Assembly: GCF_004010195.1 (NCBI RefSeq)
Contig: NC_057759.1
Coordinates: forward strand, 7,653,910 to 7,715,909
DNA: 62,000 nt
DNA from: Chiloscyllium plagiosum
Taxonomy: Eukaryota
Direction: 5' to 3'
Each line of letters starts with the position of its first letter. Position 1 is the stretch's first letter. Of this stretch, positions 15,512-60,940 are shown in pieces. A program made the position numbers and the translations under genes. The notes under the pieces were generated by a model. The model saw only the letters and a list, made by a program, of their open reading frames with translations, had not been told where the DNA came from and did no database searches.

Positions 15512-15641
15512 AATTCCTGAAGAAGAGCTTATGCCCGAAACGTCGATTCTCCTGCTCCTTGGATTGCTGCCTGACCTGCTGCGCTTTTCCAGCAACACAT
15601 TTTCAGCTCTGATCTCCAGCATCTGCAGTCCTCACTTTCTC
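15512..15641 (+). mobile_element. Penelope-like pLTR fragment (hammerhead-bearing) inserted in gypsy gag
   Basis: Same sequence as the other copies, ending CTCACTTTCTC. TSD CTCAAGGAA at 15503-15511 and 15642-15650. Confidence 0.8.
15517..15544 (+). ncRNA. Minimal hammerhead ribozyme core (one stem II mismatch)
   Basis: CTGAAGA-A-GAGC-TTAT-GCCC-GAAACGTC. Confidence 0.6.
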
Positions 15642-17402
15642 CTCAAGGAAGATTTGGCCAGGATCCGTCCATAGATTCCTGAAACGCTGTCTCTAGGCTT
15701 CTGGCACAGGCTTATGTGCACTTAAAATGGCTTTCTTCACCTCCTCAGATCCCTTCTCCAACAGTGATGTGAATACCTCACTATCTCTACATCCAACATT
15801 TGTTGGAGCAACAAAACCTTCATGGCCACTGGCACTGCAGTTGTTTCGCCACCTTTTTCTCCATCCTTCTCATGATATTTTAAGCAAGGCCATGATCCAT
15901 TTAAACAGATACCCACCAGGTATTTAGCTACTATGGGCTTTGTTATGGACTAGGCCAGACCACTCAAAATATTCTTAAACATGCAACTCTCGATCTAACT
16001 TTGCAATTTGTTTCGGTAAGTGTACAGTGAAAATTACCTGGAGCTAGTTTAACTGTTAGATTTTAAAACATAAAAACCATTTATTCAGAAAATTACACAA
16101 TAAAACATAAATAAACAGAACAACGAACGCCCACAGAACTCAGTCCATCCAGCTAGATTTAATTATGCTGTTCCAAATACACACAACAGTCACAATAAGC
16201 AAAGTCCCTTTAAAACCCAGTATAAATGGAATACATACTTCCAGGTTGAAGTTGAAGGGCAGAGAAGAGAGAGGGTTTTCACACAGCTCAGTGGGGCACG
16301 TCCTAGTTCAGGACTGAAATGAAAACAGCTCAACCCATCTCAGCTATAGAGCTGACCACTCCACTCTCATTATACAAGTAACTTCTAAAACATGAGCACC
16401 TTGGTCTGAAGTCTTATTTGTTTCCAGATGATAGAAGCCTCTCAAAATCCAACTATGTGCAAAATCAGACTGATTGGAATCCAGCCCTGTTTATTGTCCC
16501 TTTGAAAAAAAAATCAAGGACAGAATCTCTTTGAGACAAGGAACAGCTTTTAAAAAATAAAGAGACTAGTTTGGTGAAAACTCCCCTTAAAAAGAAAAGA
16601 ACCATCAATACCAAAAGATGCTTTCATTTTAACCCTTCAAAATTCCGATTAGTAGTTTTTAAACACACTTACACACTATACTAACTATAAACATGCACAA
16701 CCACATGCAAATTCAGGCCACAGCTCACCCATCACCCCACGCCTCTATATCTCATTCAAGTCTTCATAACGCATTGGCTATCACGTTTTTGCGACCTGCC
16801 ACTTGCACAATTGTCAAATTGAATGATTACAACAGCAAGCTCCATCTAAACAGTCTGACATTTATGCCATTACTTTTTCGGCACAAATGTCAATAGGTTG
16901 TGATCAGTGTATATGATTGCTTCGTATACCTTGCTGGTATTAAAACCATTGAAATGTTGTAATGCCAACACCATACCTAAAGTTGAATATTTTTGTTTAT
17001 CAACGTTTAAGTTCTTGTAAAAAATACCCAATGGATCTTTCTATCCCCTCGTCAGCCTCCTGCAGGAGCACCACGCCGACAACCACATCACTAACACGGA
17101 TAGTCACCTTGAAAGATTTTGTGTAATTCACTGTGGCTAATACAGGGTCAGGAAGGTGACATAGCCTTTGGTAAATTTACATTTACATTTGAATTTAACA
17201 GCCAACCTGCGTTCTGAAGTTGATCGAACAAGTCTTACTAATGCTGAAAATATTCCTCTATCAGTGACGAAAAGTTCCCAGCTCATCAATGTACATCACA
17301 CAGTTGGGTATTCCGGCAATGACCTTATTTGTCAGTCTCTGAAATATGGCTGGGGCGTTTTTCATACCAAATGGAATGATTTTGAACTGATGTAGTACAT
17401 TC

Positions 17403-17723
17403 GTGGGCGGCACGGTGGCACAGTGGTTAGCACTGCTGCCTCACAGCTCCAGAGACCCAGGTTCAATTCCCGCCTCAGGCGAATCTCTGTGTGGAGTTTG
17501 CACATTCTCCCCGTGTCTGCGTGGGTTTCCTCCGGGTGCTCCGGTTTCCTCCCACACGCCAAAAATGTGCAGGTTAGGTGAATTGGCCACGCTAAATTGC
17601 CTGTAGTGTTAGGTGCAGGGGTAAATGTAGGGGAATGGGTCTGGGTGGATGCGATTCGGCGGGTCGGTGTGGACTTGTTGGGCCGAAGGGCCTGTTTCCA
17701 CACTGTAAGTAATCTAATCTAAT
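17403..17723 (+). mobile_element. HE1-like SINE, full length, inserted in gypsy RT
   Basis: A box TGGCACAGTGG, B box GGTTCAATTCC, (TAATC)n tail. Confidence 0.9.
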
Positions 17724-19186
17724 TTGGCATTACGAAATCCGAAACTGATTTTGTTGTCTGTGTCAGTAACCTCTCAGCAAGTCCAAATTATAAATGTAAG
17801 TTAATTGTCCGACGTGTCGACACAGTCCTCCAACCGTGGAATTGTATATGCATCCATCTTTGTAATGGTTTTGACATTGCGATAGTCCACACGTTGCTAT
17901 TGGGTAGCATCTGGCTTCAGAACCTTGTCTATGGATGAGCTCCAGTCACTGTAACTCACTTTGATTCTACCATCTTGGAGCATGCGCTCTATCTCCTTCT
18001 GAACGCGTGCCAACCTTTGAGGGATATCCCGAGAAGATTGTTGCTGAATAGGAACAGTGTCTCCGATATCTACATCATGCAGCATTAGGTTAGTATTTCC
18101 CAGTTTAGTTCCGCAAATCTCCCCATGTGATAGTAATAACTTTTTCAGGTCATTTTGAATTTTTTGTGGAAGGTAACTCAATAATTTATCCCATTTTTTA
18201 ACAACTTCCTCGTTGTCCAATTTGATATAAAGAATGTCCAATACAGAAACCTTTGAAAGTGGTCCTTCCTTCTCTGCTGTAATCATTAATACCTTCTCAT
18301 CTTGCTTTCCTTCCCTATCAAATACCTTTTGATCATATTCAAATGACACACTCTGTGAGAATACTTCCTGCCTGGAGTCCTTACCAAGTTGTTCACCTCA
18401 TACAATTTCTTCTGAATTTGATAAGGTCCAGTAAACTTTGCTTTTAAAGGCTCACCTGTTATTTATCCTCAATTGCAAAATTGCAATTTGTGATTTCGTA
18501 TCCGCTTCTTGTTTCATTATATCCAGTGATACTTGTAAATGTTGTCCAGCCAACACTCCAGCTCTATTTAATCATTCTCTAAAACTTGACACATAATGGG
18601 CGATCCCTGAATTCTGATTTAATAATTTCTCATTAATCAATGTGAACGGTCCTCATTCATCATGACCACAACTTAATTCAAATGGACAAAATTTGGTCGA
18701 TTCATTCGGTACATCAGTTATCGCACAAAATACAAATGGAACTCCCTTAGCCCTGTCATCTGGGAAAAACTGACCATGACGTTTAACATTGTCTTCAGTG
18801 TATGATGTCATCTGTCTAGCGCTCCCTGCAATTCTGGATGGTACACAGTAGATTGGAATTGCTTTCTTCCCAAATTATCTATAACTTTCTTGAATAGTTT
18901 GAATGTGAAGTTTGATCCTTGATCTGACTGGATTTCTTTTTGTAGTCCACATATAGTAAAAAAAAACATTTCTACAGTCCATTTAACTTTGATGGGATTG
19001 CCTCTGGAAATCTTGTCGACATATCCATTATTGTTAGTAAATACGTATTCACACTTTTTGTTTGAGGTAGGGAATCTACACAATCAATCAAAACTCTTGT
19101 GAAACGTTCCTCAAATGCTGGAATACATATTAAAGGCACAAGTTTTATTACAGCCTGGTTTTACGATTAGCTGATATATAGATTAG

Positions 19187-19319
19187 GTAAAAACAATGAC
19201 TGCAGATGCTGGAAACCAGATTCTGGATCAATGGTGCTGGAAGAGCACAGCAGTTCAGGCAGCATCCGAGGAGCTTCAGCAAAATCGACGTTTCGGGCAA
19301 AAGCCCTTCATCAGGATTC
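19187..19319 (-). mobile_element. Penelope-like pLTR fragment, second subfamily (hammerhead-bearing)
   Basis: Ends ...CAGCATCTGCAGTCATTGTTTTTAC on minus. 16-bp TSD CTGATAT(A/G)TAGATTAG at 19171-19186 and 19320-19335. Confidence 0.78.
19287..19314 (-). ncRNA. Minimal type I hammerhead ribozyme core
   Basis: Minus strand reads GGAATC-CTGATGA-A-GGGC-TTTT-GCCC-GAAACGTC-GATTTT. The flanks can form stem I (GGAAUC/GAUUUU, two G.U pairs). Confidence 0.72.
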
Positions 19320-19327
19320 CTGATATG

Positions 19328-19570
19328 TAGATTAGATTACTTACAGTGTGGAAACAGGCCCTTCGGCCCAACAAGTCTACACCGACCCGCCAAAGCGCAA
19401 CCCACCCAGACCCATTCCCCTACATTTACCTCTTCACCTAACAGTACGGGCAATTTAGCATGGCCAATTCACCTGACCTACGCATTTTTGGATTGTGGGA
19501 GGAAACCGGAGCAACCGGAGGAAACCCACGCAGACACGGGGAGAATGTGCAAACTCCACACAGAGAGTCG
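19328..19570 (-). mobile_element. HE1-like SINE (5' truncated)
   Basis: Reverse complement of the SINE body and tail. Confidence 0.85.
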
Positions 19571-22500
19571 CCATGACATGCCTTTCAAAATTCAACTCCA
19601 TCTTTGTGTAGTACAGGCCAGGAAAAACGTCTTTGTATTTTAGCCTGTGTTTTACTCACCCCTAAGTGACCTCAAAGTGTTAGCTCATGCGCCACTCGCA
19701 GCATCTCCTTTCTATACCCTACTAGCAAAACAATTTGACGAATCTCTGCCCGTTTTTCATCTGCTTGAATGTGTGATCGTCTCTATTTTCTCATTAAGAC
19801 ATAATTTGTGAAGTAATCGCACACAGGAATGCATTCACGTCGTTTCTTTGTAAATGCCTTTTGATATAACTGTTTTAATTCTTCTTTATGTCGGAATTCA
19901 ATCAGCTTAGCAGAGCTAAATATATTGACATCTTTATCTAATTGCTCCTTCTCTGTTCCACTTATGTGATCAAAGTGTGTTTCGGATGGCACGATGTCAA
20001 CTTCTATATTTGTGCCTTTTGATCTCTCCAGCTTCAAATTGTGTCTTATTGTGATCACACAATAAGGGAAAATTCCTTGATAAACGTTCTCCAGGTTTCA
20101 TTGCCTGCGTCACCACTGACTTTTCAACTAGAGTATGCAGCACGCTGCTGCTGAATCAGCTATATCATTTGCAAGGACAAACCGTACTACTGGAGCTGAG
20201 AGTTTGTTCACTATTCCCATTACAAATTCTCCAGTCTTCGCTGGAATTTCTAGCCTCACTTTATATAACTGAGTGCTTTTGTCTTACCATTAATTCCTGT
20301 TACCAGTACCTTTTTTGGCAATAGTCTTTCATGAATACATATATCCTCATCCTTCAGCATTACAGACTGAGAGAATCCTATTAGCCTTAATATTGTAACG
20401 TCCTTACTTATTACTCCTGGTCTGTGTGAATAAACTTTACCTTTGCATATATATTTTTGAACAGATCTGCCACTTACTTCTTAATCAACCTCTGATTATT
20501 TCATACACTCTGAGGCAGTTTTCTGACTTCCCTTGTGCTTTTTGTTACTAGTCCAACAAAACCTTCAGGCTTGTCTAGCTTTCTCATAGCCCAGCAACAC
20601 TGTGATTTCCTGTGGCCCACTTTATAAAGATGAAAACACTGGAGATTTTTCTTTACTTTGTCCCCCATAAGAGTTTCTTTTTTATCTTGTGGTAAGTTAT
20701 CCTGATGAACTTCACTCAGATCTACCTTACCCTGTCCACGTGTGGATTTCTCATTGCCCCAATTTCTATCTCTCATGGACTGAAACTGATTCTGGAAGCC
20801 AAACTGTGTTTTGTGGACCAGCTCATAATCATCAGCTACTTCAGCTGTTAACCATGCTGGTTTATCTCTCTGCTCTTCAACATGAGTTCGCACTACTTCC
20901 TCACTGGGCCTACCCGCAGTCATTACCTCCAGCCTTTTAAGCTGACTTTCCTTTTAATGTGTCACTTTTGGAAGTTCAAACACTCTATTTTTCCTTCTCT
21001 GCTCTCTTCTTCCCTCTCTTCTGCTTCTCTCTCTTTTCTCTCTCTTTTGATGCTCTCTCTGTTTCCCTCTCTTCTGCTTCTAATTGTAACTCAAACTGTT
21101 TCATTTCTGCTTCACTTTCTTTATCTCTCGCCTCTAACTGGAGCTGCTTCATTTTCAATTGAATTCTCGCCATACCTAGAGATTCTGATGATTGTTCCAG
21201 TAAGCTTAAATGTTGAACCACTGCTGTAATTATTTCTCCTTTCTTCACAGAAGCAGGCAGCTCCAATTCAAGCATCTCTTGCAACTAGGTCTTATTCACT
21301 TCTTGCAAATTTCCAACGTCACCGCATCCACATCAAGAAAACGTTTGGCGACTGAAAGAGCCATTATTATCCCAAGCTTTGTCTACCCAACCAAATCAAC
21401 ACTCGAAGTAAAGACACTATCACCTTCCACTCGCTATTTAAATCCCACAAAGACATCCCAATCTGTACTGGACTCGGCCAGAAGAACAAAAACATTCTTA
21501 AGCAGGCAGCCCTAGACCTAACTTTGCAAATTGTTTTGTGAAGTGTACAGTTAAAATTACACGGAGTAAGATCGTCAGGCTGACTACCAGGTTTTAATAC
21601 AGACAAAAGAATAATTCGTACAATTACACAGTGAATCACAAAGAACAGAATAAAGAACTCCTACAGAACTCAACCTATCGAGCTTCACTTAATTACGTTG
21701 TTCTAAAAATATGCAACGGTCCCAATAAGCAAAACCCAATAAAACCCAGTATAAATGGAACACATGATTACAGGTTGAAGTTCAAGGGCAGAAAAGACAG
21801 AGAGTTTCCACACAGTTCCCTGGTGAACTTCCCAGTTCCGGACTGAACTGAAAACAGCTCAGCTCAGCTCTGATAAAGAGCTGACCACTCCACTTTCATT
21901 ACACTGGTTACTTCTAAAATATGACCACTTTGGCCTGAAGAATCATCTGCTGACATATAAACAAAATACCCCTCAAAATCATTTTCATTTCTGTAACAAA
22001 CCAGACAGATCAGAGTCCAGCCAGGTTTCTTGCAATTCTGAAAAGAAATCAAAGACAGCGTCTCCTTGAGCCAAGGAATAGGGTTTAGAAAAAAAGGGAC
22101 TAGCTTTGTGACAGTTTGCTCATCATTATTCTCTTCCTCACTAAGTTTACCTTCAACTCTCATCTCCAACCTTTTTTAGCTAACTTTACTGCCAAGGTGC
22201 CTTTTCTGCCGAGGTCCTTTACTGCCTAGGTCCTTTTCTCTCTATTCTTCCTCCCCTTCCATCTCTTCTATCTCTGTCACGGTAACTTCGATTCTGTCAT
22301 CTTGGAGCATGCGCTCCATCTCCTTCTGAACGTGTGCCAACTTTAGAGGGTTATCCCGATCAGAATGTTGCTTAATCGGAAGAACATCTCCTATGTCTAC
22401 ATCATGCACGATGAAGTTAGTACTTCCCGGTTTATTTTCGCAAATCTCCCTATAGTAATAACTCTTTCAGGTCATTTTGAATTTCTTGCGGAAAATAATT

Positions 22501-26413: not shown

Positions 26414-28907
26414 ACTCTCATAACCATACTGACTCACGTTCTTCTACGCATTATCATACTTTTCGTTAATCCAATTTAGATATTTTATCTCATGATATCA
26501 AATAGGCAAAAGCTGACATACTCCAAACTTCAGTTGAAGACCAGCTCAGAGTACTGTATAATTCGAAAACGATGAGTGTGGAAATTAGTGCTCGACCTTG
26601 GAATCCGTTGTCCATCCTTTTAACAAATATATCTGCTTAACAAATCACCTGCAGTTGTTGGAAACGTTATAGCTACATCTGCCGTGTACTCCACCTGCTC
26701 CCAGTATTGCAATTGATTTAAACTGCCCTTGGAAGTGGCAAAGGGAATTCAAATAGCACCGAGCATGCAAAAATACGAAGAAAAGAATTGTATCAGCTGT
26801 TAAAAATATCATTAACACAAGTACAAAAAATCCACTTCCATTGTGTCATCTTTCTTAATTTCCTTCACTAATGGAGCTGTTGTTGCCACACTCCCCCTTC
26901 CCACATGTCGCTTATAGCTGGCCACTTCCACACCAAGAAGAGCAGCATTACAGACAGACAGCTCAGCAACACATTCTTAAATTCAATGCGATAGACAATA
27001 GTTTATTAGACAAACCAACACCGAATGGAAAGCAACAGATGAAGAGGAGAGCATAGAAGACTCAATTCGTATCAAGTCTTCTATGTTCTTCAGCGGGCTC
27101 GCCTTCTGAAGCATAAAAAGGCCATTTAAAAGAAAATCACATTATCAAGGGTCTGAGGTCAGCACTGGTAATGATAGCATATTCATGCATGAAAGTTATG
27201 GATTTTACAACAAACCATAGTCATCATTTGGCTAAATTCTATTTTCAGATTTATTGAATTTACCTTTGTTATCCGGTAATTGCATTTTGCAACTCTTGGC
27301 ACCAAAGGAAATGCTGATATCTCTGGCAGAACTCTTTCCATGCTTTTGATGTAGATGTCATCATCTCTTCTAGTTTGTTGTGACCTACCTGATGTCATAT
27401 TTCAAATATTCTTGGAAATTCTAAATGTGTTATTGTAAGGAAAATTAACGCATCAAACAGGTAAAAATAACAAGTTTATCTCTTGTTCACATGCCCTTAA
27501 CAAGACTGTCTATTGCTCAGATGCATAAAAATGAGGTCCACAAATATTCCCCAGGCTTACTAAACCGCAAGATATAAAGCATAATTTCCTGAATGAAGCC
27601 ACATATAAGAACATTACGTTTAACATGTAAAGTACACCGCTTCCGTGTTTATCATGTCCAAACATTATGATGCCCTGTCATACAATTGTCCAAACAATTG
27701 TCAAAATTGACATTCAAGGCCACTATGCCACTAACGTCACATTCTAACTGTTTTCTTAAGCCTTTTTGGAGATTCATTTCTTCATGAAAACCTTTACCCA
27801 TTCAATAATATTTCAGAATTCATTCCTAGGGTTATTGCTCAAACAGCTTCTACTCAGACGCAGATTAAATACAAAAAAGATCGACAATGACATGAATCTT
27901 TCAGATTTATATCATAGTGCAGAGAAATTGCAGATGGCAGTAATGCACGGGCAGAGTTTTCCAGTCAAAATTCAGTTGCTTCCCAGAAATTTTGACTCAG
28001 TTCAGCAAAGACTTAAAAATCTCCAGTCACGAGCAAACCAGCACTGAATGTGGTAAATATTGAATGCAGAAACGTTTCCTGTGTCTCTCTGTGGCATAAA
28101 TATCCATTTTCACAACAAAATTTGAAAAACAATCTTGTTTTCCGGAAGGAGGAAGTGGCAAAAGATTGAATACAAAGACTAGTCTTTCATGTACACCATG
28201 CAATGAAATGAAAAATGTATTGACTGATCGAATGATTGGCAGTAAAGATCACTATTGTTGTTAGAAAGAGGGAAAATGTGTTGCATTTTGCATGACGACG
28301 GACTTCAAGTCTTAATGACATGTTATAGACAGAGGAATATAGTGGACGCTGCAAGCCAGAAACTGAATTTGCTATGATTACTGTGATAGAATCCAAACAG
28401 CACAAATCGTTTTCCCATTGTGTTTATGACAACTCAACTTGCTTCCCGCTCACCGATCTGCAGGAGTTCACTTTTTGTCTTGACGTGCAATGAAGGTTCT
28501 TCTCCTTCTTTGGAGTCCAGAGTAAAATGAAAGAAAAGGCTTCAATAAATCCGTCCAATGAACAGCAATGTCTAAGAAGATTCGCAAACACACAGAAACG
28601 CGCACACAAACATACGCAGGAAGATTGAGCTTAAACTAAATTGTGAGAATTGTGTCTAATCACTCCAATCATTCTCAGAGTTATCCTGCCCAAATAACAC
28701 GTAAATAAGTTTACAACTTATCTATTATTCAAAACCAAGTATCGTTCAAAAGTGAGCTCCAAACCTCCAGGGCATTTCAACAACTGTTCTCAATCGAGCA
28801 GAAGAAAAGAATAAACCTTTTAACTGACGAAAAGTCACGATGGACAGAAGAGATTAAGGTATTTTCTCTATCTACATATGCTGCCAGAACTGCTGCTTTG
28901 CTACAAC

Positions 28908-29059: not shown

Positions 29060-29518
29060 TTATCTGTTTCCGCTTCAGTTTTAAAATGTACAAATTTTAA
29101 TTTCTTTATCAACCCATTACCTCATCCCAATTTAATGAAGTGTTCGCCAGACTGTGTAAATTGATCAGCGTGCTATGTAGTCTTCATGCGTTTGTGGTTT
29201 CTGACTTCTTGATCTCATTTAACGTTGCAATTTGATGCAAATGAATCAAACTATTTCAAAGTGTCTGTAAAGCAGACCTGCACGATATTCAGACATACGC
29301 AGTGCATGTTTTCCAATACCAGTTCAATTCATCTTTCTTTATTGTTGAGGATGCATGTAACAACTGAAGGGGTTTTCAGACCCAGTTCCACCTGCAAATG
29401 ACATCCACATGCGTTTAACGAGTCTGAACGATAAATTGCACAGTACACTGGTTCTGAAGACATGTTTTCTAAAGGAAATAGGCTTTTCTTTATCATTCGT
29501 TGTCTGTACATATTTGCA

Positions 29519-29735
29519 GGAGAAAGTGAGGTCTGCAGATGCTGGAGATCAGAGCTGAAAATGTGTTGCTGAAGAAGCGTAGCAGGTCAGGCAGCATCCA
29601 GGGAACAGGAGAATCGACGTTTCGGGCATAAGCCCTTCTTCCTGAAGAAGGGCTTATGCCCGAAACGTCGATTCTCCTGTTCCCTGGATGCTGCCTGACC
29701 TGCTGCGCTTCTCCAGCAACACATTTTCAGCTCTG
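29519..29735. mobile_element. Palindromic Penelope-like mini-insertion (inverted pLTR pair)
   Basis: 92-bp arms at 29550-29641 and 29644-29735 with 2 mismatches, plus a 31-nt tail. TSD TCTGTACATATTTGCA at 29503-29518 and 29732-29747. Confidence 0.85.
29642..29669 (+). ncRNA. Minimal hammerhead ribozyme core
   Basis: CTGAAGA-A-GGGC-TTAT-GCCC-GAAACGTC. Confidence 0.68.
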
Positions 29736-30086
29736 TACATATTTGCACTTCATCTGTGTGGCTCAAGCCAACGAAACAAGGCAAGGGCAGAAAGTTTCAG
29801 TTCGTTAATGAATGCGCAGACTTTTGCAACTAATACTGGTGACCTGGTAAAAATTGGATTAATAATCAAAAGCAGATTAATCTGAAATAGTTTGTAGAAT
29901 CATACAATACAGAACAGGCCCATCCGTCTATTGAGTCTGTGCAACCAAGAAAAAAGTCTTCCAAAACTATGTTCACTTGCCTGCATTAAGTCCATATCCT
30001 TAAATGGTCTGACACATAAAGTGTACATCCAAGGACTATTTCCACCGCAACTACCATCCCAGATAATGCAGTCCAAAATCATAGCA

Positions 30087-31900
30087 TTGAATTGAATTGA
30101 ATTTATTATCACGTGTACTGATGCACAGGGAAATGTGAGCAATACAGGCCGATCACAGTTAAGTGGCATGTATAAGTAAACAATAGGTAAACAAAAACAA
30201 AAAAAAGGTACAGGCGAATGTTAAGAGTTTGTGAGATAATTCAGTATTCTAACAACAGTTGGGTAGAAAGTATTTCAAAACCGGTTGGTGCGTGTGTTCA
30301 GGCTTCTATACTTTCTTCCCGAGAGGAGAGGTTGTAGAAAAACATGCTAGGGTGTGAAGAATATTTGAGAATTCTGGAGTCATTTCCTTGACAACGGGCC
30401 TGGTAGATAGATTCTGTAGATGGGAAGTTGGCCTTCGTCATTGTTTGGGCCGTGTTCACTACTCTCTATAACTATCTCCGATCTTGAATGGTACAGTTGC
30501 CATACCAGGTACTGATGCATCGAGACAGAATGATCTCGATGGCACTCCTAGAAATGTTGGCAAGGGTATTCGCCATTATGCCAAATTTCCTCAGTTGCCT
30601 GAGGAAGAAGAGACATTGTTGGGTCTTTGTAACCAGTGTGCCCGCATGAAGAGCGTAAGAAGCTGGTTGTGAAGCTTGACACTCTCCACTCGTTCCACCT
30701 CCGTGCTGTTAAATTGTAGGGGGCAGGTGTACCATCCCGCAGAAAGTCAATAATGAATTGCTTGGTTTTGCTGGCATTTAGATATAGGTTGTTCCATCTG
30801 TAGTCTGTTTCATCGCCATCTGAGATTCGACTGACTATGGTTGAGTCATCGGCGAACTTGTAAATGCAATTTGTCTGGTATTTGACAACGTAGTCATTGG
30901 TATACAGTGAGTACAGTAGGGAGCTGAGCACGCACCCCTGGGGGGCTCCAGTGTTGAGTGTTAATGACGATGGAATATTGTCCCCAATTGTCACTGATTG
31001 GGGCCTGTGGATCAGGAAAAGAAAGATCCCAATTGCAGAGACTGGGACTTAGTCCAAATCTCTAAGTTTAGTAATCAGTCTCGAGGGGATAATAGTGTTT
31101 AAAGTTGAACTGTAGTCAATGAGTAGGATTCTTAAGTAGCTGTTCTTGGTGTCAAGATGTTCTAGGGAGTAGCGAAGGGAAAGTGATATGACACCAGAGT
31201 GCATATGTTGGTCCAATAGACAAATTTGAGTGGGTCAAGTGGTTTGGGAAGTGGGAGTTGATTAATGTCATGACCAGCCTTTCAAAGCACTTCATGACCA
31301 CCGATGTTAAGGCCACTGGGCAGTAGTTATTGAGAGATGCTGCGTTTGCATTCTTAGGCACAGGGATGATGTTGGCCTTTGTAAAAGAGACAGAGACAGT
31401 GGCCTGCTGCAGGGAGAGTTTGAAGATGTCCGAGAAGACCTCTGCCAATTGATCTGCGCATTGTCTGAGTGCACGGCCTAGTATTCTGCTTGGTCCCATT
31501 GCGTTCCTCAGATTCACACGAAGGAGAACTGGTCTAACCTCTGATGTAGTGACTGTTGGGTAGGTTCGTCAGGATTTGTCAGAATAAGCGCCATTTCGCC
31601 GCCGAAAGTCTGCTAAAAGTGAGCATACAAGGCATTGAGATGATCTGGGAGGGAGATGATATTGTCTGCTATCTTGCACTGTTCCTTTTTAGAAACTGTG
31701 ATATCATTCAGTCCTTTCTATAGTCGCTACGTGTCTGTCTGTCTGGATTGGTATTGATGTTTGGCTGTCTTAATGGCTCTGCGAAGGTCATAGTCGAGGA
31801 GATTTGTTCTGTTTCTGACGTTTTCCGCCATGTTGTTACTGGAACACATGGCCCGAATGGTTCTCTGCCGTACACATTCAGTGTCACAGTAAAACCAACA
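30087..31900 (-). mobile_element. Rex1/Babar-like LINE 3' portion
   Basis: RT motifs TLNTGAPQGCVLSSLLYSLYTNDY...KFADDSTIV and CADQLAEVFSDIF...PVALTSVVMKCFERLV. 3' end is AATAAA followed by a (TTCAA)n tail on minus. Confidence 0.82.
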
Positions 31901-32490: not shown

Positions 32491-32496
32491 GACTTT

Positions 32497-33209: not shown

Positions 33210-33255
<46 letters not shown>

Positions 33256-36794: not shown

Positions 36795-37014
36795 GAGAGA
36801 AAGTGAGGGCTGCAGATGCTGGAGATCAGAGCTGAAAATGTGTTGCTGGAAAAGCGCAGCAGGTCAGGCAGCATCCAAGGAACAGGAGAATCGACGTTTC
36901 GGGCATAATCGAAACGTCGATCCCTGAAGAAGGGCTTATGCCCGAAACGTCGATTCTCCTGTTCCTTGGATGCTGCCTGACCTGCTGCGCTTTTCCAGCA
37001 ACACATTTTCAGCG
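36795..37014. mobile_element. Palindromic Penelope-like mini-insertion (inverted pLTR pair)
   Basis: Perfect 78-bp arms at 36831-36908 and 36936-37013, plus a tail of about 34 nt. TSD AGAG(C/A)AAAATGTTT at 36781-36794 and 37015-37028. Confidence 0.85.
36924..36951 (+). ncRNA. Minimal hammerhead ribozyme core
   Basis: CTGAAGA-A-GGGC-TTAT-GCCC-GAAACGTC. Confidence 0.68.
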
Positions 37015-38639: not shown

Positions 38640-39570
38640 AGTATACGTTGCTGGTGAAACTCAGCAGTTCGGGCAGCATTTGTAAAGAAAAATCAAATAT
38701 AACAGTGCAGGTAGGGTGAGCATTCTTCAGAACTGATGTGAGCTCGGAAAATATAAGTTTATGTGCAGAAGAAAGAGTTGGGGGGCAAGGAGTAAACAAT
38801 AGGAGGAGGTAGAGCTCAAAGAGAGAAATGAACAGTTGGATAGACAAAGTAATAGAAAACGAACTGAGTTGGAGCGCAAGTAGCTAATTAAGACTGTTAG
38901 TGGCGAAGAGCAGGTAATGTGTAATGGCAGACTGCGATGACAAGGCTGGGTGTGTGGGATAGCGGGGATGGACTTGGGGCAGTTCATGCCGTATAATTAC
39001 TGATCTCGATATTGAGTCCAGAGGGCTGGAGGGTCAGCAAACCAAAAATGAGGTGCTGTTCTTCAACCTTACAATGAGCTTCTCTGGTACACAGCAGAAA
39101 GCTGAGGCACAGCTGTTGACCAAGGAACAACGTCACGTGTTGAAGAAGCACGCAACTCGAAGCTCGGGGTCTTTTCTGCGGCCAAAAAATAGACATTCTG
39201 TGAATTAACCATCCAATTAATGCTTCAGTTCCCCAATATGGAGGACACCCACATTGTGAGCAGTGAATGTGTGACACGAGATTTTATGAAATGTGGGGAA
39301 AGAACTTCTTCACCTCGAAGGTATGTTTAACCCTTTGGATATTGAGAACGGAGGAAGTGAATGGTCAGGTGTTACACCTTTGGTCATTGATGGTGAAGGT
39401 GTACTGGGACTTTGCAAGGAGGTTTTGGAAGTGATGGAAGAGTGGAACCGGGTGTCCCAGAGGGAAAGTTCCCTGCGGAATTTGAATATATGTGTGGTGG
39501 TGGGATTGTGCTTAAGGTGGAAGAAATGGCGGCTGATGATCTTCGGGAAGTGGATGCTAGTGGGATGGTA
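38640..39570 (-). mobile_element. Decayed Penelope-like element 3' end (GIY-YIG endonuclease remnant plus degenerate pLTR)
   Basis: Translates IHCSQCGCPPYWGTE... and EAHCKVEEQHLIFGLLTLQPSGLNIEIS. Downstream lies a CTGAAGA...ATGCTGCC...CTGCTGAGTTTCACCAGCA pLTR-like motif. Confidence 0.7.
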
Positions 39571-39574
39571 AGTA

Positions 39575-40050
39575 CGAACAAACCCCTATGGCAGCAGAAG
39601 GTGCAAGACCTGTCCCCATAGCTCCACTCTCACCTCTTTGCAAGGCCCCATAAATCATTCTAAGTCTGGCAGAGATTGACATGCATTTCCTTTAACCTGA
39701 CTTATTGCATCCGTTGCTCCTGATGTAGTCTCCTTTACTTCGGGAAGATTGACCACAAGCTGGGGAATCAGTTCAGGGAACATAGATGATCCATACGCTC
39801 CAATCAGCAGAACCTTACCGTTTCCAGCTATTTGAACCCGTCTGCCCCCGCCGCCCCATTCGACGACCCATTTTTCCTGGATGCGTCCACTACCAACACA
39901 AGGCCACATGCGAACTGGAGGACGAACAGCTCACTTTCCGTCTCGGGTGCTTGCAACCATACGGCCTCAACATGGATTTCACAAGCTTCCAAATCTTCCG
40001 AAGCCCCATCTCATCCCAGACCCATACCTCTCTCTCTAACTTGCCTCCAT
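39575..40050 (+). mobile_element. Decayed Penelope-like GIY-YIG fragment
   Basis: Translates YCIRCS*CSLLYFGKIDHKLGNQFREH and ATCELEDEQLTFRLGCLQPYGLNMDFTSF. Confidence 0.72.
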
Positions 40051-40401
40051 AACGTAACATTCATCCGAGGACAAGCCAAACAGTTGCACGCACGAGAATT
40101 CCTAGAATCATGGCATTCAAATCGGAACTCTATGAACAAACAGATTGACTTGGATTCCATTTACCATTCCCTGAGAAAAAGAACAGGGAATGACATCACC
40201 AAAGGCAATGACATCATCAACCCAAAGAAACCCAATCATTCCAATGCAAAGCAGGAAACGTCGGCAGTGCTTCTCCTGGAGGCTCACTGAAAATGTTACT
40301 TTGTGTGGCGATGAAACGTATGGAAATGAACCTTCCAACTCAGCGAGCAAACCTACATCCAGAGCCTCAACCTGAGCTACAAACCTTCTCAAAAGTCGCT
40401 A
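40051..40401 (+). mobile_element. 3' end of a different Penelope lineage with a degenerate hammerhead at 40287-40320
   Basis: Translates IRGQAKQLHAREFLESWHSNRNSMNKQIDLDSIYHSLR, then CTGAAAATGTTAC...GATGAAACGTA (G8 lost). Confidence 0.65.
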
Positions 40402-41858: not shown

Positions 41859-41886
41859 CTGAAGAAGGACTTACGCCCGAAACGTC
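41859..41886 (+). ncRNA. Minimal hammerhead ribozyme core (first of a tandem pair; stem II mismatch)
   Basis: CTGAAGA-A-GGAC-TTAC-GCCC-GAAACGTC. A degenerate second copy lies at 42057-42084 (GAAA changed to AAAA). Confidence 0.55.
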
Positions 41887-42180
41887 GATTCTTCTGCTCC
41901 TTTGATGCTGCCTGACTTGCTGTGTTTTTCCAGCAACACATGTTTCAGCTATGATCTCCAGCATCTGCAGTCCTCACTTTCTCCTAGTTGATTTTAACCT
42001 ACTGCGAATCCTCTTGCGAGGATGCCTTCCTTGAAGAAGCTCTCCTCCCTCGCTTCCTGAAGATGGCCTTATGCCCAAAACGTCGATTTTCCTGCTCCTT
42101 TGATGCTGCCTGACCTGCTGCGCTTTTCCAGCAACATATTTTTCTGCTCTGATCTCCAGCATCTGCAGTCCTCACTTTCT
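41859..42180 (+). mobile_element. Direct tandem of Penelope-like pLTRs (198-nt period)
   Basis: Two copies of the hammerhead/pLTR unit separated by an extension beginning CTAGTTGATTTTAACCTACTGCG. Confidence 0.8.
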
Positions 42181-49269: not shown

Positions 49270-51480
49270 ATGTAACGATGGAAAGGGGTAGCTATATACC
49301 GCAGGGCAAAAGTTGCAGCTGGAGAAAGAGCAATTATAATGAGATTAAACAAGATTGAGGATGCATAGCATGCTTAAACAATCTGCAGGGGTTGGGCACA
49401 AATGCAATGTGGAGCTTATTCAAGGAATAGCTACAGTCTGACCTTGATATGTATGTACCTATCAGGCAGAGAAGAAGGTGTCGAGTTGGAGAGTCATGGT
49501 TCACTAAGAAAGGTGAATCTCTTGAGAAGAGGAAGAACAAGGCTTATGTTAAGATGAGGTAAAAACAATGACTGTAGATGCTGGAAACCAGATTCTGGAT
49601 TAGTGGTACTGGAAGAGCACAGCAGTTAAGATGAGACATTGAGTCTCAATTAGGGCATTTGAGAGTTACAAACTCGCCAGAAAAGACCTAAAGAGAGAAC
49701 TAAGAAGAGCCAGGAGGTGACATGAGAAGTCGTTAGCAGATAGAATCAGGAAAATTCTAAAACCTTCTATTGGTATATCAGGAATAAAAGAATGACGAGA
49801 ATAAGATTAGGGTCGAACAATGAAAGTAGTGGAAAGTTGTGCGTGGAGTCCAAGGAGATCGTGGAAACGCTAAAATACTATTTTCATTCGTATTCACACT
49901 GGGAAAAAATGTTTTCGAGGACAATACTGAGATAAAGGCTACTACACTAGATTGGATTGAGGTTCACAAGGTGGCGTTGTTAGCAAATCTTGTAAGTGTG
50001 AAAATAGACAAGTCTCCTGGGCCAGGTGGGATTTATCCTACGATTGTCTGGAAAGCCAGGGAAGAGATTGAAGAGCTTTTGGTTTTGACCTTTACGTCGC
50101 CATTGACTGCAGGCATAGTTTCAGAAGACTGAAGGATAGTAAATGTTGTCCCCTTGTTCAAGAAGGGGAGTAGCGACAATCCTGGTAATTACACACCAAT
50201 GAGCCTTTCTTTAGTTGCGGGTAAAGTGTTGGAAAACGTTATAAGAGATATGAATTACAACCATCTAGAAAAGAAGAAGTTGATTAGGGATAGTCATCAT
50301 GGTTTTTTGACCGGCAAGTCGTTCCTCACAAACCTTATTGGGTTATTTGAGAAGGTGACAAAACAGGAGGATGAAAGTAAAGTGGTTGCGCTGGTGTAAA
50401 TGGATTTCAGTAAGGCGTTTGATAAGGTTCCCCATATTGCACAAAATAAGGAGGCAAGACATTGAGAGTGATTCATCAATTTGGATCAGACATTGGCTGT
50501 CCAAAAGAAGACAGAGGGAGTGGTTGATGGAAAGTCTGTATCCAGGAATTCTGTTACTAGTGGTGTACTGCATGGATCTGTTTTGGGTCCACTGTTCTTT
50601 GTCATTTTTATAAATTACCTAAATGGGAGCGCAGGTGGATGGGTTAGTAAATTTGCAAATTACACTAAGGCCGGTGGAATTGTAGGTGACAGAGGGACAT
50701 AGATAAGCTGCAGATCTAGGCTGAGAGGTGCCAAATGGAGTTTAATGTGGAAACGTGTAAAGTGATTAACTTTGGAAGAAGCAACTGGAATAAAGAGTAC
50801 TGAGATAATGGTATGATACTTGGCAGTGTAGATGAGCAGAGAGATCGCGATTTTCACCAAAGTTGATAGGGTTGTTAAGAATGCACACGGTGTGATAACT
50901 TTTACTGTTAGAGGGATTACGTTTGGGAGCCACGAAATAGTGTTGCAGCTGGAAAATAAAACATTGGTGCAGCTGCACATGGAGAAATGTGTTCTCTTCA
51001 GCACATTATAGAAAGGATGTTGATGCCTTTGAAAAAGGTTGAAAGGCGATTTATTGCGATGTTGCTGGCATGGAGGGAACGAATGATGATGAAAGGCTGA
51101 GGGACTTGAGGCTGTTTTCAGACTTAATTGAGACATATAAGATAATCAGAGCGTTCCATATGTTATACAGTAAGAGCCTTTTTTCCTTAGACGGTGATGA
51201 CTAGCAGGAGGGGGCATGGCTTTTAATTGAGGGTTCATAGATACACGACAGATGTCAGAAGTGTTTTTTTTACTCAGAAAGAAGTAGGTGCGTCGCACAC
51301 CATGCCTGCAAAAGTTGTAGGCTCCTCAACTTTAAGGGCGTTTAAATGGCTATTGGATAATCATACAGATGAAAATCGAATAGTGTAGGATAGATAAGCT
51401 TCAGATTGGTTCCACAGATTGGCGCAATATCAAGAGCCAAAGGGCTTGCAATGCTCTGTAACGTTCAGTGATCTATGTTC
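49270..51480 (+). mobile_element. Decayed 5'-truncated CR1 LINE
   Basis: Translates KSPGPGGIYP, FKKGSSDNPGNYTPMSL, HGFLTGKSFLTNLI and GVLHGSVLGPLFFVIFINYL...SKFANYTK, followed by a CR1-type 3' end. Confidence 0.85.
49559..49624 (-). mobile_element. 66-bp extreme 3' fragment of the second Penelope-like subfamily, inserted in a CR1
   Basis: Same terminus as the 19187 copy. TSD GTTAAGATGAG at 49548-49558 and 49625-49635. Confidence 0.8.
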
Positions 51481-55467: not shown

Positions 55468-55484
55468 TAATGATGATGAAGAAA

Positions 55485-55803
55485 GTGGGTGGCACGGTTG
55501 CACAGTGGTTAGTACTGCTGCCTCACAGCGCCAGAGACCCGGGTTCAATTCCCGCCTCAGGCAACTGTCTGTGTGGAGTTTGCACATTCTCCCCATGTCT
55601 GTGTGGGTTTCCTCCAGGTGCTCCGGTTTCCTCCCACAGTCCAAAAAATGTGCACGTTAGGTAAATTGGCCGTGCTAAATTGCCTGTAGTGTTATGTGAA
55701 GGGGTAAATGTAGGGGAATGGGTCTGGGGAGTTGCTCTTCGGAGGGTCGGTGTAGACATGTTGGGCCAAAGGGCCTGTTTCCACACTGTGAGTAATCTAA
55801 TCA
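55485..55803 (+). mobile_element. HE1-like SINE nested in an opposite-orientation SINE
   Basis: A and B boxes plus tail. The host SINE on minus spans ~56063-55810 and ~55400-55325. Confidence 0.85.
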
Positions 55804-55809
55804 TCAGCC

Positions 55810-56600: not shown

Positions 56601-57319
56601 GCGGAGGTGCCGAGAAATTGAGAGACGTGAAATGGTAATGAAATGTTTAACGTCTGAGGGAGGCTATAGAGTTAGTGAGGCCATGGAAATATTTGAATAT
56701 ATGCTGAGCATGCAAGACATTGAGAAGGTTATAAAAACATTGAATAGCCTATACAATAACAGGAAGAAGAAGTTGAAAGATGCAGAAGATGTTTGTAAAG
56801 TTGCCAAGAGACATAAATGAGGTGTGTTGGATAGTAATTGAATGGAGAAGGAGAATTGTTGTGGATTAATGAAAAATAAATAAATTTATCGACATTTCTG
56901 TTCAAAGGAAGACTAGAATCTTATTATGGTGACCATGCTGGACACAGAGCTATTAAAGTCATTGAGTACAGCATATGGGGAAACTGAAGATTACAGAGCA
57001 TGGTCAATTTGGACCCGTGCAGGGAGTGACATAAAAGTCAAGGCAAGACTGAAAAGAAGTGTGTAGGTGGGTAACAGCAGCGTACGAGCCAAGGCAAGAA
57101 TAGAGCACGCCAAAGATTCTGAAGTGGAATCGTTGGCACAGATATCACGGGATCCATAATCACATGTTCATCTTGGGGAAGGACAATCGTGGCTTCAGAT
57201 ATGGCCCGAGATTAATGATATATTCAGGTAAAGTGAGGGCAGTTTTCAGTATTCCACAGCGTATATGTTGATCTGATGTGTACATTCCAGATCATGCTAT
57301 GAAGAACATTGTCACTTAC

Positions 57320-57613
57320 CTCTCACTGTTACCAGCACCGGTTCGCTGGTTGGTGAATAATGCTTCGTTTTATTTACTTTTCTCGCGTATTGGCACTTGT
57401 ATTTCCAAGTTCCAGCTCTTGTTAGGATGTTGAAAGCAGTGGATTGAACAAAGCCTGCTACCGATTTGGAAAGAGTCTGCTCGCCAACTTGATAGAGATA
57501 ATACCAACCACCAGAGCTCAGAATGGATCCTGAGCAGGTCAGACGAAATGTATTCCCTCTATTGACCACCCCGGACGGTGGGTGTACAGAGATCATGGCC
57601 GTCGGGAGAATAT
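57320..57613 (-). CDS. Multi-Ig cell-surface protein, Ig exon D (divergent, membrane-proximal)
   Basis: 294-nt phase-1 exon with TTTCAG acceptor and GTAAGT donor. Encodes ILPTAMISVHPPSGVVNRGNTFRLTC...WYYLYQ...GTWKYKCQY...SEPVLVTVR. Confidence 0.88.
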
Positions 57614-58246
57614 CTGAAATTGGAATGGCATAAAGCTGAATCGATACAAGTAGATTTGATGGCAATTAGAATCAATTAAGTTTCGGTTACATGACAAACG
57701 TGGAGCACACACGACACACTTTGGAACAATAGCATGACTCTATGAGAATTATATTATTCTGACATCGGCGTAGACATTTTCACAGACCTAACCTCCTGAA
57801 TCCACTTCATCATCCCCACCCCTCATTGTAAGCACTGGGCGAGATCTGTAATGTTGGAGAATCAGGCATATACTATCAAACTTCAACTCCATCAACGAGC
57901 CACCTTACACCTGTTGGCAACAGAAAGAATGCTCCACCATCAGAGGACGCTACATTCCGCATAAGACTTGAGTTCAGAAATGGTTTCCTCATTTACCAGC
58001 GAGAAACAATTTCCTGAAATAACCTAATCAACCCCTGGAGGGAGGCATCATTCACCGTGCTGCCCACCAAGCTTTTAAACACACTGTCAATTGTGGTGTC
58101 ATGATAAATAACTTCTCCATACGTCTACAGGCGCAAACTCTTGAGCCATAAAATCAGATAGTACATAGGAATAAAATGCCATTATGCCAAACGGACGTTT
58201 TAAAAATAATGACATTCAGAGACGTCTTAAATAACATCATCCTTAC

Positions 58247-58546
58247 CAGTTATATTGATCTCCATAAAGTCACTGAGGGGTGATTTATAAACTGCTCCTT
58301 TCACAATAGCTAAGCAATGGCAGGCGTACAACCCACTCTCCTTTGGCTCAAGGTCTCTCATTTTGTAGGTGACTGATACCTCAGAATCTGACACTTGCCG
58401 TGTAGCAACAGGTATCTTGCCATATTTCTTGTTCAATTGAGAGGTCTGACAGGGGTAGTTGCTGCTGCAATTAATCTGAACGCTGTCCCCGACTGTAACG
58501 ACACCAGAAGCTGGCAACACAGATATTGTTGGCTTTGGTAACTCAG
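58247..58546 (-). CDS. Multi-Ig cell-surface protein, Ig exon C
   Basis: 300-nt phase-1 exon with TTACAG acceptor and GTAAGG donor. Encodes ELPKPTISVLPASGVVTVGDSVQINC...ESGLYACHC...SDFMEINIT. Confidence 0.88.
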
Positions 58547-59256
58547 CTGTAATAAATAGAGATCACAGAAAATTAAAATGTCTATTAATACACAGAAAAT
58601 AAAAGGAAACAAAGATGAGCAAATTTGCATTGGAGTCTGAAGAATACTTGAAACATGGTACTAGAAAGGAAAAAATAAATGCAATGTATTTATGTTTTAA
58701 TGGTGATTTCATACATCGCCTTATCAATCAATTCTAAAATGTGCATTCAATGGTTGGGGAATGAGGTCGGGGATGTGGGTAGGGGTGGTGTTTGATGGGG
58801 GGTGGCAGTCTTTCAGCGATCATCATCTAAAACTTCCATAAACTCTAAAGGACGTAGGATAATTCTATTATACCTCGCAGCACAAAACAGTAACGCCCAA
58901 ACATGGTGACCAACGAAATTTGATTCCAGTTCCTATTAATCAAACATATCATTCCTTACATGAACAGTCTAACACTGTAAAAAGTACTCTTGATTCTTGC
59001 TCTGTTTATATTTAAAATTGTTCAATAGATGTTAAACTAGTAAAAGAAATTTGCATATGAATGACAAATTGTCTTAGATCCATCTTGTAATGGACCTTTT
59101 TGGCAGATGTTCTCGGAAGCCTGCAAATTATTGTGAGATTCCAGTCCTATATTGTCGACAATAAACAGTGCAGAAGCTAAAATCAGTAAATTCTGACGTT
59201 GCCAAAGGAGCAGCTTATACAAAGAGGTAAAACTACTTCCCAAGTGCGACATTACT

Positions 59257-59623: not shown

Positions 59624-59980
59624 AAGTGCGACATTACTAAAATGCAGTCGGATCAACACTATTGGGTACTGATCAAATGGGAAAATAATTAGCAGGTTGC
59701 AGCGTTAAATCATCATGCTGTTAACAAACATATTCCTGAACACCAAACAGAAAGATGGAGCTGAGATCACAGTTGCAGGTAATCCTCAGTGCTGCAAAAT
59801 TTTCATGGTGTATGCAAAGAAACAATCATTTTGCAGAATGAACAATTAATAGCTAAAATGAAAGAACAGATATGCTACCATGCAGAATATGGAATTCGAA
59901 TATTACGGTTCGAAAATACTGAAATTGGGATTTTTTGTGAGAATGTGAAATACAGATGCTTCAATGCATATATCACTCAC

Positions 59981-60280
59981 CAGTTACAACGATGTTCACA
60001 AAGTTACTACGTAACGTTTCATATACCTCTCCATTTGCCATTTTCATAAAACTGCAGCAGAACTTCCCACTTTCAGCTGGTACAAGATCTTGCATGATAA
60101 AGGTGACTGACCATTCGGATCCGGAGTTATTGTGAACATCAAAAGGTTTGTTGACATATTTCTTGTATAGATGGGAGGCGATGCTTGGCGAGCTGGAGTT
60201 ACAGGTAATTTGAACTCGCCCACCCACACTTATGGTACCAAAGGCTGGCTCCATATGTATCGTTGGCTTTGAAATATCAT
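59981..60280 (-). CDS. Multi-Ig cell-surface protein, Ig exon B
   Basis: 300-nt phase-1 exon with TTACAG acceptor and GTGAGT donor. Encodes DISKPTIHMEPAFGTISVGGRVQITC...LYK...ESGKFCC...SNFVNIVVT. Confidence 0.88.
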
Positions 60281-60864
60281 CTGTAACGAAGCACATTCAA
60301 GCAGAATTTGGCAATTTTGTCAAAGCAGTGGAACCATTGTTACATTGTGATGGGACAATTTTCGCGCTAACAGTGTGGAAGTGAGGTTAACCAGTCTGTT
60401 ATGAGCGTCGAATCCCAAACATTCACACGCACACAAACACACGCACACACACACATACTTCAGCGAAGGGAAATAATTTCTTACCATCGATTCTCGCAGC
60501 CACTTGGTACATGTTGTCAGTTTCAGTAAGGTTGTTAATTGTTTATCTTGACGAATAAGAAAGTTGACTAGTCGATCAACATTCTCCTCATACTCCATTT
60601 GCACACATCAAAACAACGTCAGAGACCCACCCATGATTGCTGCGAGGCAGTGAAGTATTCAGCTGCAAATCGTTGGGTAAATCCAACTTTTATACATTAC
60701 AAACAGTTTATTTATGCAAATTTATCACAATACCCATAGTATTTCCAGCTGTATTGGGGCTTGGTATACTCAATTTTCTGGACAGTTGGCTTGTAATTCA
60801 GTGTTGAAACTTTATTGCTGGAACAGCACAGCAGGTCAGGCAGCATCCAGGGAACAGGAGATTC

Positions 60865-60892
60865 GACGTTTCGGGCACAGGCCCTTCTTCAG
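60865..60892 (-). ncRNA. Minimal type I hammerhead ribozyme core, sense to the Ig gene pre-mRNA
   Basis: Minus strand reads ATTC-CTGAAGA-A-GGGC-CTGT-GCCC-GAAACGTC-GAAT, giving a 4-bp stem I (AUUC/GAAU). Confidence 0.72.
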
Positions 60893-60912
60893 GAATTGTT
60901 TAATTGCCCTTC

Positions 60913-60940
60913 CTGAAGAAGGGCCTGTGCCCGAAACGTC
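60913..60940 (+). ncRNA. Minimal type I hammerhead ribozyme core
   Basis: TTC-CTGAAGA-A-GGGC-CTGT-GCCC-GAAACGTC-GAA. Confidence 0.7.

Follow-up and report, generated by a model that had tools for sequence, protein, structure and literature searches.

Why does a 62,000-nucleotide stretch of the genome of the shark Chiloscyllium plagiosum (RefSeq assembly GCF_004010195.1, contig NC_057759.1, positions 7,653,910 to 7,715,909; hereafter the window) carry the core of a hammerhead ribozyme again and again, and are these copies small mobile elements in their own right or the debris of a larger one? The pattern CTGANGA-N(8-30)-GAAAC occurs nine times in the window against 1.29 ± 1.05 expected, a count that none of 100 shuffles reaches; seven matches belong to one repeat family and two are unrelated. 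An earlier reading, made from the letters alone (the sequence-only reading), had described these seven as a recently mobile population of ribozyme-bearing mini-elements. In our view the window motifs are very probably minimal type I hammerheads in the pseudo-long terminal repeat (pLTR) of a Neptune-type Penelope-like element (PLE), and the stubs that carry them very probably inert. The best overall explanation, which we consider probable, is that they are dead by-products of this element, left by copying of its RNA from two sites back to the RNA 5' end. In the element numbering used here, C3 of the hammerhead is +1, helix I starts at -4 and cleavage is predicted after +28 (C17).

Where the copies end

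At their 3' side the arms of the family end at about +92 or about +127, with a tail of about 35 nt between the two sites. In head-to-head pairs these ends follow a rule, one arm ending near +92 and the other near +127. Unbiased DNA of the 3.56-Gb genome gives 27 long/short pairs out of 29 classifiable ones. Overall the tally is 78 of 82 (p 4e-19) with no tail-to-tail pair, five pairs having been dropped for N or edge and 18 having an arm in neither class; after loci were added and duplicates removed it becomes 91 of 95 classifiable pairs, part of these loci having been chosen by their 5' base and none by their 3' ends. Five of six pairs in 20 fresh stretches obey the rule as well, the sixth having a shorter short arm, and an unrelated family with helix III AGCU (the AGCU family) follows it in 17 of 18 pairs.

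The relation between the two arms bears on how such ends arise. Subfamily-diagnostic sites agree between paired arms in 489 of 520 cases, against 65% in shuffles, and near-identical arms of one subfamily speak for ends made on DNA, whereby a cDNA folds back and primes itself (or an antisense template is used), with trimming by the endonuclease at ATT (-4) and +92. Self-priming was proposed in PMC3846280, resolution of the tail by the endonuclease in PMC8557442, and the preference for ATT is described in PMC11167929; palindromic joints GGAATTCC are also common among A junctions. However, in 36 of the 91 pairs the short arm extends at least 10 nt further 5', while the tail is found only in the long arm. 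Each arm of these pairs thus has sequence unique to it, and therefore neither is a fold-back copy of the other. Solos with a target duplication end at both sites (10 at the long, 12 at the short). Although a further ATT occurs at +30, copies that end at +29 exceed those at a control position only mildly (1,568 versus 1,474). Trimming also leaves unexplained both the G excess at -5 and the -8 starts of the AGCU family described below. We thus regard formation of the ends on DNA as unlikely, albeit worth keeping in mind.

Taken together, the long/short rule, the sequence unique to each arm and the occurrence of both solo ends suggest that each target strand primes its own cDNA, with one start site each, and twin priming of this kind is in our judgement likely. 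A target duplication is present in 66 of 78 pairs, with a mode of 14-15 bp. We propose that the element's enzyme would nick both target strands, start reverse transcription at two fixed places inside the RNA and proceed from each to the RNA 5' end. The two cDNAs, of 96 and 131 nt and primed on opposite strands, would run off the capped RNA 5' end. Joining both head to head would produce a fold-back, joining one to the far target end a solo, and a jump of the cDNA to another position of the RNA a direct partial tandem. Several short pieces of target or element sequence have been copied again in the joints of loci L134, L173 and L200, and in that at 36909-36922 of the window, a pattern which suggests that re-priming took place repeatedly while the 5' joint was being repaired.

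On the 5' side, ends accumulate at -4, where helix I begins. Among 17,686 exact subfamily-A copies with ATTC to -4, 8,791 match the parent to -8, and in 4,794 the base at -5 differs from that of the parent (G 2,876, A 1,382, T 536), G being 2.3 times background. Sampled -5 junctions are real cuts (none of 50 rows with G reads through, 2 of 20 with T do). Cuts at -4 occur alike in solos, fold-backs and direct tandems, and the stop is therefore independent of the partner. At -4 the parent reads TCATTC, which resembles the initiator consensus, and TTTATCT stands 31 nt upstream in 53 of 67 read-through arms with the motif and 33 nt upstream in 7. The AGCU family has TATAAA at -40, and its solo or leading arms start, by eye, near -8 and not at the edge of helix I. 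In L1, a 5' G that has no template is accepted as a mark of cap copying (PMC9341517). This sequence pattern inclines us slightly towards -4 as a capped transcription start, in which case the ribozyme would constitute the first 37 nt of the mRNA. Two other origins of the -4 end were considered. A splice acceptor, as at the Drosophila motif (PMC4209133), was rejected because the parent has no AG there, and a block of the reverse transcriptase (RT) at the edge of helix I is disfavoured because the AGCU family starts about 5 nt upstream of helix I (small numbers, by eye).

Several observations weigh against this account of the ends. Twenty-one of 116 pairs had an arm in neither length class and are excluded from the 91 of 95. 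The genomic rule needs one start site per strand, whereas the Anolis enzyme in vitro shows no start-site difference between strands in the results drawn from PMC11167929; ATT, which stands at -4, is moreover the preferred cut motif of that enzyme (PMC11167929). TTTATCT differs from the canonical TATA box, and those 53 arms with it descend from few masters and are not independent. Most of the G at -5 is also present in the partner (target or opposite arm), often with AT microhomology behind it, and the opposite arm is purine-rich; a single extra G is seen by eye in 5-7 of 50 G junctions versus 2 of 23 A and 2 of 20 T junctions, which are small numbers. Half of the exact copies continue seamlessly through -4, and some -4 starts in the unbiased tally are read-through copies of other subfamilies.

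The parent element and its stubs in the window

Thirty loci retrieved with positions 41859-42056 of the window run on past the repeat into the start of an open reading frame (ORF), several of them with an upstream C-rich untranslated region (UTR). The likely ORF start lies at +164, behind the tail. Natural copies elsewhere in the genome provide an N-terminal peptide, a DKG motif, the C-terminal part of an RT, a CxxxxCxxC linker and a CCHH GIY-YIG domain, arranged as GIY-YIG, 3' UTR, hammerhead, tail and ORF start. GIY-YIG with CCHH and a CX2-5CxxC linker are read in peptides of loci L004 and L112. A Pfam match to GIY-YIG narrowly below the cut-off was obtained in 2 of 7 peptides scanned (E 1e-4, 22.5 bits versus a cut-off of 22.6), and Pfam gave no RT match on the pieces of broken copies bearing the DKG motif and the RT C-terminal part. 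The CX2-5CxxC linker is common to Nematis and Neptune (PMC8557442), and by the criteria drawn from that paper the parent is of Neptune or Nematis type, Neptune being likelier in a vertebrate (preprint 10.64898/2026.07.22.740005). Among 20 loci chosen by endonuclease match no intact full-length parent was found, the search being non-exhaustive. Read-through parents with the upstream UTR exist for each subfamily.

The stubs have neither the upstream box nor sequence behind +127, and therefore would neither be transcribed by themselves nor bound again. If they were instead self-propagating mini-elements or retrozymes, as first suggested, they would move via their own short, cleaved or circular RNA. 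Their uniform units of 96 and 131 nt, their three or more subfamilies and their very high number agree with this, as does the derivation of non-LTR retrozymes from pLTRs (bioRxiv 10.64898/2026.07.22.740005). Yet head-to-tail arrays of whole units are absent from the window and the loci read, every subfamily has the read-through parents just described, and the stubs start at -4 and not at the cleavage site. With the neutral decay of the cores and the RNA reads discussed below, self-propagation appears very unlikely to us; the copies are likely 5'-cut by-products of a protein-coding parent and not mobile by themselves. A miniature inverted-repeat transposable element was also rejected, the arms being unequal, head-to-head and ending at RT sites.

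The seven cores were correctly located and exceed chance, with C3 at 15517 (+), 19314 (-), 29642 (+), 36924 (+), 41859 (+), 60892 (-) and 60913 (+). The five plus-strand starts stand as first given, but the values 19287 and 60865 given for the minus strand are C17 ends, the C3 lying at 19314 and 60892. Nor are they seven separate copies: the motifs form six insertions, 60892 and 60913 being the two arms of a single one with an 18-bp target duplication, and the inverted partner arms of 29642 and 36924 had been left out of the list. Five of the six have target duplications (about 9-18 bp) and three are fold-backs.

The first insertion, 15513..15643 (+), is a solo pLTR stub of subfamily A that covers -4 to +127, with its hammerhead at 15513-15549, an A.C mismatch in helix II, U.U in helix I and a target duplication at about 15503-15511 / 15642-15650. 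The subfamily-B stub 19187..19319 (-; C3 19314, C17 19287) has an intact core and helix II, a helix I 5' strand GAAUC that is private to this copy, and a 16-bp target duplication (19171-19186 / 19320-19335, 1 mismatch) inside a SINE-like repeat tail. Two fold-backs belong to subfamily A. In 29519..29731 the minus arm runs from +3 to +127, thus with the tail and without C3-U4, and the plus arm (C3 29642) from -3 to about +92, between 16-bp duplications at 29503-29518 / 29732-29747. In 36795..37014 the minus arm covers +13 to +125, with the tail, and the plus arm -1 to +91 (C3 36924, 5' strand of helix I lost); a short re-copied piece lies at the joint, and the target duplication is 14 bp (36781-36794 / 37015-37028, 1 mismatch). 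The direct partial tandem 41859..42180 (+) consists of a first unit from +1 to +190, which extends beyond the tail into the likely ORF start (ATG 42022), lacks the helix I 5' strand and has a helix II mismatch, followed by a unit from -3 to +124 (C3 42057) with G12>A; a target duplication was looked for at this tandem and none was found. Finally, the subfamily-C fold-back 60807..61038 has a minus arm from -4 to about +90 (C3 60892), a short spacer and a plus arm from -3 to +127 (C3 60913), flanked by 60789-60806 / 61039-61056. Its minus arm is the sole window copy with the inherited 4-bp helix I AUUC/GAAU.

Other relatives in the window are more damaged. The 3' part of a subfamily-B pLTR without hammerhead, 49552..49630 (-), was absent from the first list. 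Of the copies listed there as decayed, 42057 indeed belongs to the main family, but 40287..40320 (+; G8>A, C17>A) belongs to a different, second Penelope family with a longer helix II and, in sister copies, helix I TCA/TGA; it lies behind a coding remnant at 40060-40290, and we take the family to be Poseidon-type from its peptide, for which Pfam gave no match. The remaining three are old relatives with weak or by-eye matches only: 8290..8355 (+; core mostly gone, blastn E about 1e-5), 28824..28906 (+; by eye, no blastn match) and 38643..38735 (-; blastn E 5e-4). Broken remnants of an older Neptune-type linker and GIY-YIG domain cover 38993..40046 on both strands (tblastn with a natural-copy peptide, E 6e-16 to 9e-8). 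The region 38993-40420 as a whole is a Penelope nest, in which two old endonuclease pieces of Neptune type, lying on opposite strands, precede the other family's 3' end with the 40287 hammerhead. At L101:9195-9327 and nearby, a hammerhead of the 40287 type adjoins a main-family arm, as if captured by a template jump.

The surroundings are rich in other repeats. A tRNA-headed short interspersed element (SINE) with a (TAGAT)n-like tail, which we take to be shark HE1, occurs at 1920-2226, 17399-17726, 42756-43093, 55481-55809, 19328-19572 and 7483-7772, the 19314 insertion sitting in such a tail. Broken LTR-retrotransposon-like pieces with integrase-, RT- and gag-like peptides (by eye) lie at 5337-6008, 13582-14266, 17897-18951 and 20501-20953, and broken fragments of long interspersed elements, RT- and endonuclease-like by eye, at 30548-31568 and 46825-47409. 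The segments 45596-45895 and 46032-46331 form a local direct duplication (period 436, 98% identical). Among genes, 11745-12731 (+) encodes an intact-looking single-exon rhodopsin-family G protein-coupled receptor (Pfam 7tm_1, E 1e-23), and ORFs at 57312-57665 and 58227-58562 (-) resemble, by eye, immunoglobulin-domain exons of one receptor gene; the fold-back 60807-61038 lies upstream of them on the minus strand.

Fold, decay and cleavage of the ribozyme

The catalytic core (C3-A9, G12-A15.1, U16.1, H17) is complete in all seven window motifs, and the extra A after A9, the variation at N7 and in the stem II loop and the ACGU helix III are all as originally described. The unbiased arms have the extra A in 86 of 89 and G10.1 in 81 of 89, with helix III ACGU (AGCU in another family). 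Helix II is GGGC/GCCC in five of the seven motifs, but 15517 reads GAGC and 41859 GGAC, each with one A.C mismatch. Helix I has at least 4 bp in two window copies (60892 and 19314, both minus) and is otherwise cut in its 5' strand or U.U-mismatched; truncation removed it in 4 of 7, and U.U occurs in subfamilies A and B. The 4-bp form is realised in subfamily C. The covariation of stem I claimed from GAAUC/GAUUU does not hold, as L210 and L244, the copies nearest to 19314, have AUUC, and so do other members of subfamily B. The GAAUC of 19314 is a junction or point change of that copy and is not inherited, and the difference between subfamilies A/B and C (GAUU versus GAAU) is one-sided. Judged from the sequences, the real covariation is between families and not within them: at least four unrelated families share the exact core with helix I TTC/GAA, CAC/GTG, GTT/AAC or TCA/TGA and helix III ACGU or AGCU. 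The AGCU family (L060, L107, L085, L056 and others, outside the window) is abundant and of Penelope type, with helix I CAC/GTG, a 5-bp helix II and predicted cleavage after UA or UU; 40 nt upstream it has the canonical TATAAA, and its arms obey the two-end rule as well. Older families with helix I GTT/AAC or ATT/AGT and U17 are seen at L054:+6010, L079 and L037:+1541; the GTT/AAC family rests on two descriptor rows, and a fuzzy motif search for it found none.

Might the parent retain the motif as a structure that binds protein or serves as promoter and no longer cleaves, at least in the U.U-bearing subfamilies A and B? Isolated motifs fold weakly (z -2.6 in one of seven, -1.05 to +1.7 in the others). 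In context, helix I has a pairing probability of 0.00 in all eight window motifs and one read-through copy, and helix II of 0.00 in 4 of 4 fold-back arms, where the motif is buried in a 90-bp hairpin; the folding model does not score the hammerhead core and speaks to hairpin competition alone. The block from +47 to +56 varies no more than the core (0.029 each), Anolis ribozyme mutants still insert (PMC11167929), and RNA read ends do not pile up at C17, in a library poorly suited to seeing them. Nevertheless, the exact core is retained in at least four unrelated families whose helices differ entirely, cleavage with protein is seen for the Anolis motif (PMC11167929), and the non-CpG core positions are more constant than their flanks, which makes a purely non-cleaving role highly improbable. 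For the window copies themselves the designation as a minimal, short-helix-III hammerhead of the dimer type is right, but none of them can plausibly form a dimer, and the sole same-strand pair (41859, 42057) has both motifs damaged.

The invariance of the core in the seven copies is real, yet as evidence it is circular because these copies were picked for that core. In 75 of the 89 unbiased arms (14 dropped as 5'-cut), with deviation from the commonest letter as measure, non-CpG core positions deviate in 2.9% of cases versus 8.6% for flanks (p 0.002). G12 and C17, both in CpG, deviate in 16%, other CpG sites in 11-23%. Core conservation above the flanks is thus borne out for non-CpG positions, but G12 and C17 decay at the CpG rate and +47 to +56 equals the core. 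From this contrast it follows that masters are constrained while copies decay. We propose that selection on the ribozyme would act on the parent lineages, with predicted cleavage after C17 only as a dimer through the ACGU palindrome and probably with help of the protein. The arms of one pair differ at 2/92, 0/78 and 0/93 positions in the window (0-2%). Recent mobility thus holds for some copies, but the median divergence is 7% in 27 unbiased pairs and no intact parent turned up in the 20 loci. Close relatives occur in sequencing runs of four organisms. Activity spanned a long time.

RNA reads and copy ends give little sign of cleavage. By eye, 8 of 12 ends at +29 are true cuts versus 3-4 of 12 at the control position. 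The local excess is 2-3-fold at most, amounts to about 1,000 copies and is explained in part by microhomology; the cleavage site was rejected as main origin of 5' ends. In a related species, 3,102 RNA reads (about 2% of the run) cover both strands and 93% run into unrelated flanks; the copies are therefore passengers of host transcripts. Loose read ends occur at -4, +81/86 and +125/127, and no pile-up of molecule ends was found at C17 or elsewhere in these poly(A)-library reads, a library that sees 5'-OH ends poorly. The mild +29 excess and the absent pile-up fit the result of PMC11167929 that uncleaved RNA is the main template, and cleaved RNA would be at most a minor one. Being transcribed inside host RNA, and forming 90-bp hairpins when folded back, some copies might be thought to have been recruited by the host, in introns or UTRs, for self-cleavage or as long hairpins, but the copies bear no sign of constraint and none in the window lies within a recognised exon; such co-option is hardly credible.

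Genome-wide, 104,853 exact matches have the complete core plus the inserted A, ACGU-C and the shape of a 4-bp helix II, against none in a reversed control, the letter sets of the pattern admitting some A.C mismatches; the stricter pattern with the subfamily-C helix I AUUC/GAA finds 10,740. In 80 stretches of 10 kb chosen evenly across the genome (770,549 non-N bases), a structure descriptor yields 52 sites versus 3, 4 and 4 for the Markov controls. At least 3 of 4 pairs of helix I are present in 41 of the 52 (0, 2 and 1 in the controls), and the density scales to roughly 2 x 10^5 sites per genome. Published counts of minimal hammerhead ribozymes (min-HHRs) are about 4,000 in coelacanth and 9,000 in Xenopus (PMC4209133), obtained with another descriptor and only roughly comparable, and tandem retrozymes reach at most 14,255 by other criteria (preprint 10.64898/2026.07.22.740005). 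The shark count suggests one of the largest hammerhead-motif loads reported for any genome, all invisible to Rfam: a scan of the window gave no hammerhead family among six matches at E <= 5, and its miRNA matches are fold-back hairpins far below gathering scores. Derivation from Penelope, the minimal type I form, the several subfamilies and the very high density had all been recognised rightly. We found no shark hammerhead count, pair rule or fixed 5' end in the literature covered, to which the supplements of PMC4209133 and of the preprint and subscription papers (e.g. Arkhipova 2006) do not belong.

Relation to known systems

That the ribozyme is present is to be expected of a known element, and its kind was described in 2014 (PMC4209133); its detection was correct and is not new. 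The value of the locus lies in its end statistics, as the long/short pair rule and the fixed 5' end turn an open question of Penelope integration into testable predictions. In L1 twin priming, two primers on one RNA give an inversion, and retroviral strong-stop DNA is a short cDNA running off the RNA 5' end. The process proposed for the shark copies differs from both in fixed internal starts near the 5' end, priming by target DNA ends and a head-to-head product. We tentatively suggest, as a possibility somewhat short of an expectation, that PLEs in general use obligate twin priming by a dimeric RT-endonuclease at +92/+127 of a hammerhead-first mRNA, with strong-stop-like cDNAs off the cap. If true, a single step would account for the tail on one side only, the head-to-head repeats and the abundance of solo pLTRs, and transfer of a run-off cDNA to the 3' end of ribozyme-cut RNA, an end that repeats -4 to +28, would restore the pLTR. 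The more than 100,000 stubs in the shark genome would then be a fossil record for counting such integration events.

The closest relatives of the motif are the min-HHRs of metazoan PLEs (Cervera and De la Pena 2014, PMC4209133), known in Neptune and Poseidon elements of fishes and reported to have low activity and to act only as dimers. They share the type I core, the extra base at 9/10.1, G10.1-C11.1, the palindromic 15.2-16.2, a short helix I and mostly single dispersed copies with some opposite-strand pairs, whereas here helix II has 4 bp, the main subfamilies have U.U in helix I and the counts are far larger; the passages of that paper used here name no shark. Non-LTR retrozymes and newt satellite 2 (PMC6155905; bioRxiv 10.64898/2026.07.22.740005) share the short-helix-III type I form, the need for a dimer and descent from pLTRs. 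They differ in having tandem arrays of whole units with a working motif each, where the window has only one direct pair, both motifs of which are damaged.

With respect to integration, a close counterpart is PAc (Frangieh et al. 2024, PMC11167929), a Poseidon element of Anolis carolinensis. Its two RT start sites bound the tail, both strands are cleaved and extended, the protein is predicted to be a dimer and the protein-assisted ribozyme is dispensable for insertion. The shark element shares a pLTR hammerhead upstream of the starts and, in our reading, the two start sites bounding the tail and the cutting and extension of both strands. In contrast, it is probably Neptune-type, and its likely start codon is at +164 behind the tail and not in the ribozyme; the one-site-per-arm rule and the fixed 5' end seen here are absent from the parts of PMC11167929 considered. 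Canonical endonuclease-positive Penelope elements (PMC8557442, PMC3846280, PMC2377424) likewise exhibit 5' truncation, partial tandems, head-to-head pLTRs, target duplications, a 30-40-bp tail on one end only and a promoter that lies partly within the upstream unit's 3' UTR. The accounts drawn from these papers are qualitative and explain the pattern by self-priming or by the endonuclease, whereas in the shark genome the pattern has been counted and the arms are not mutual copies.

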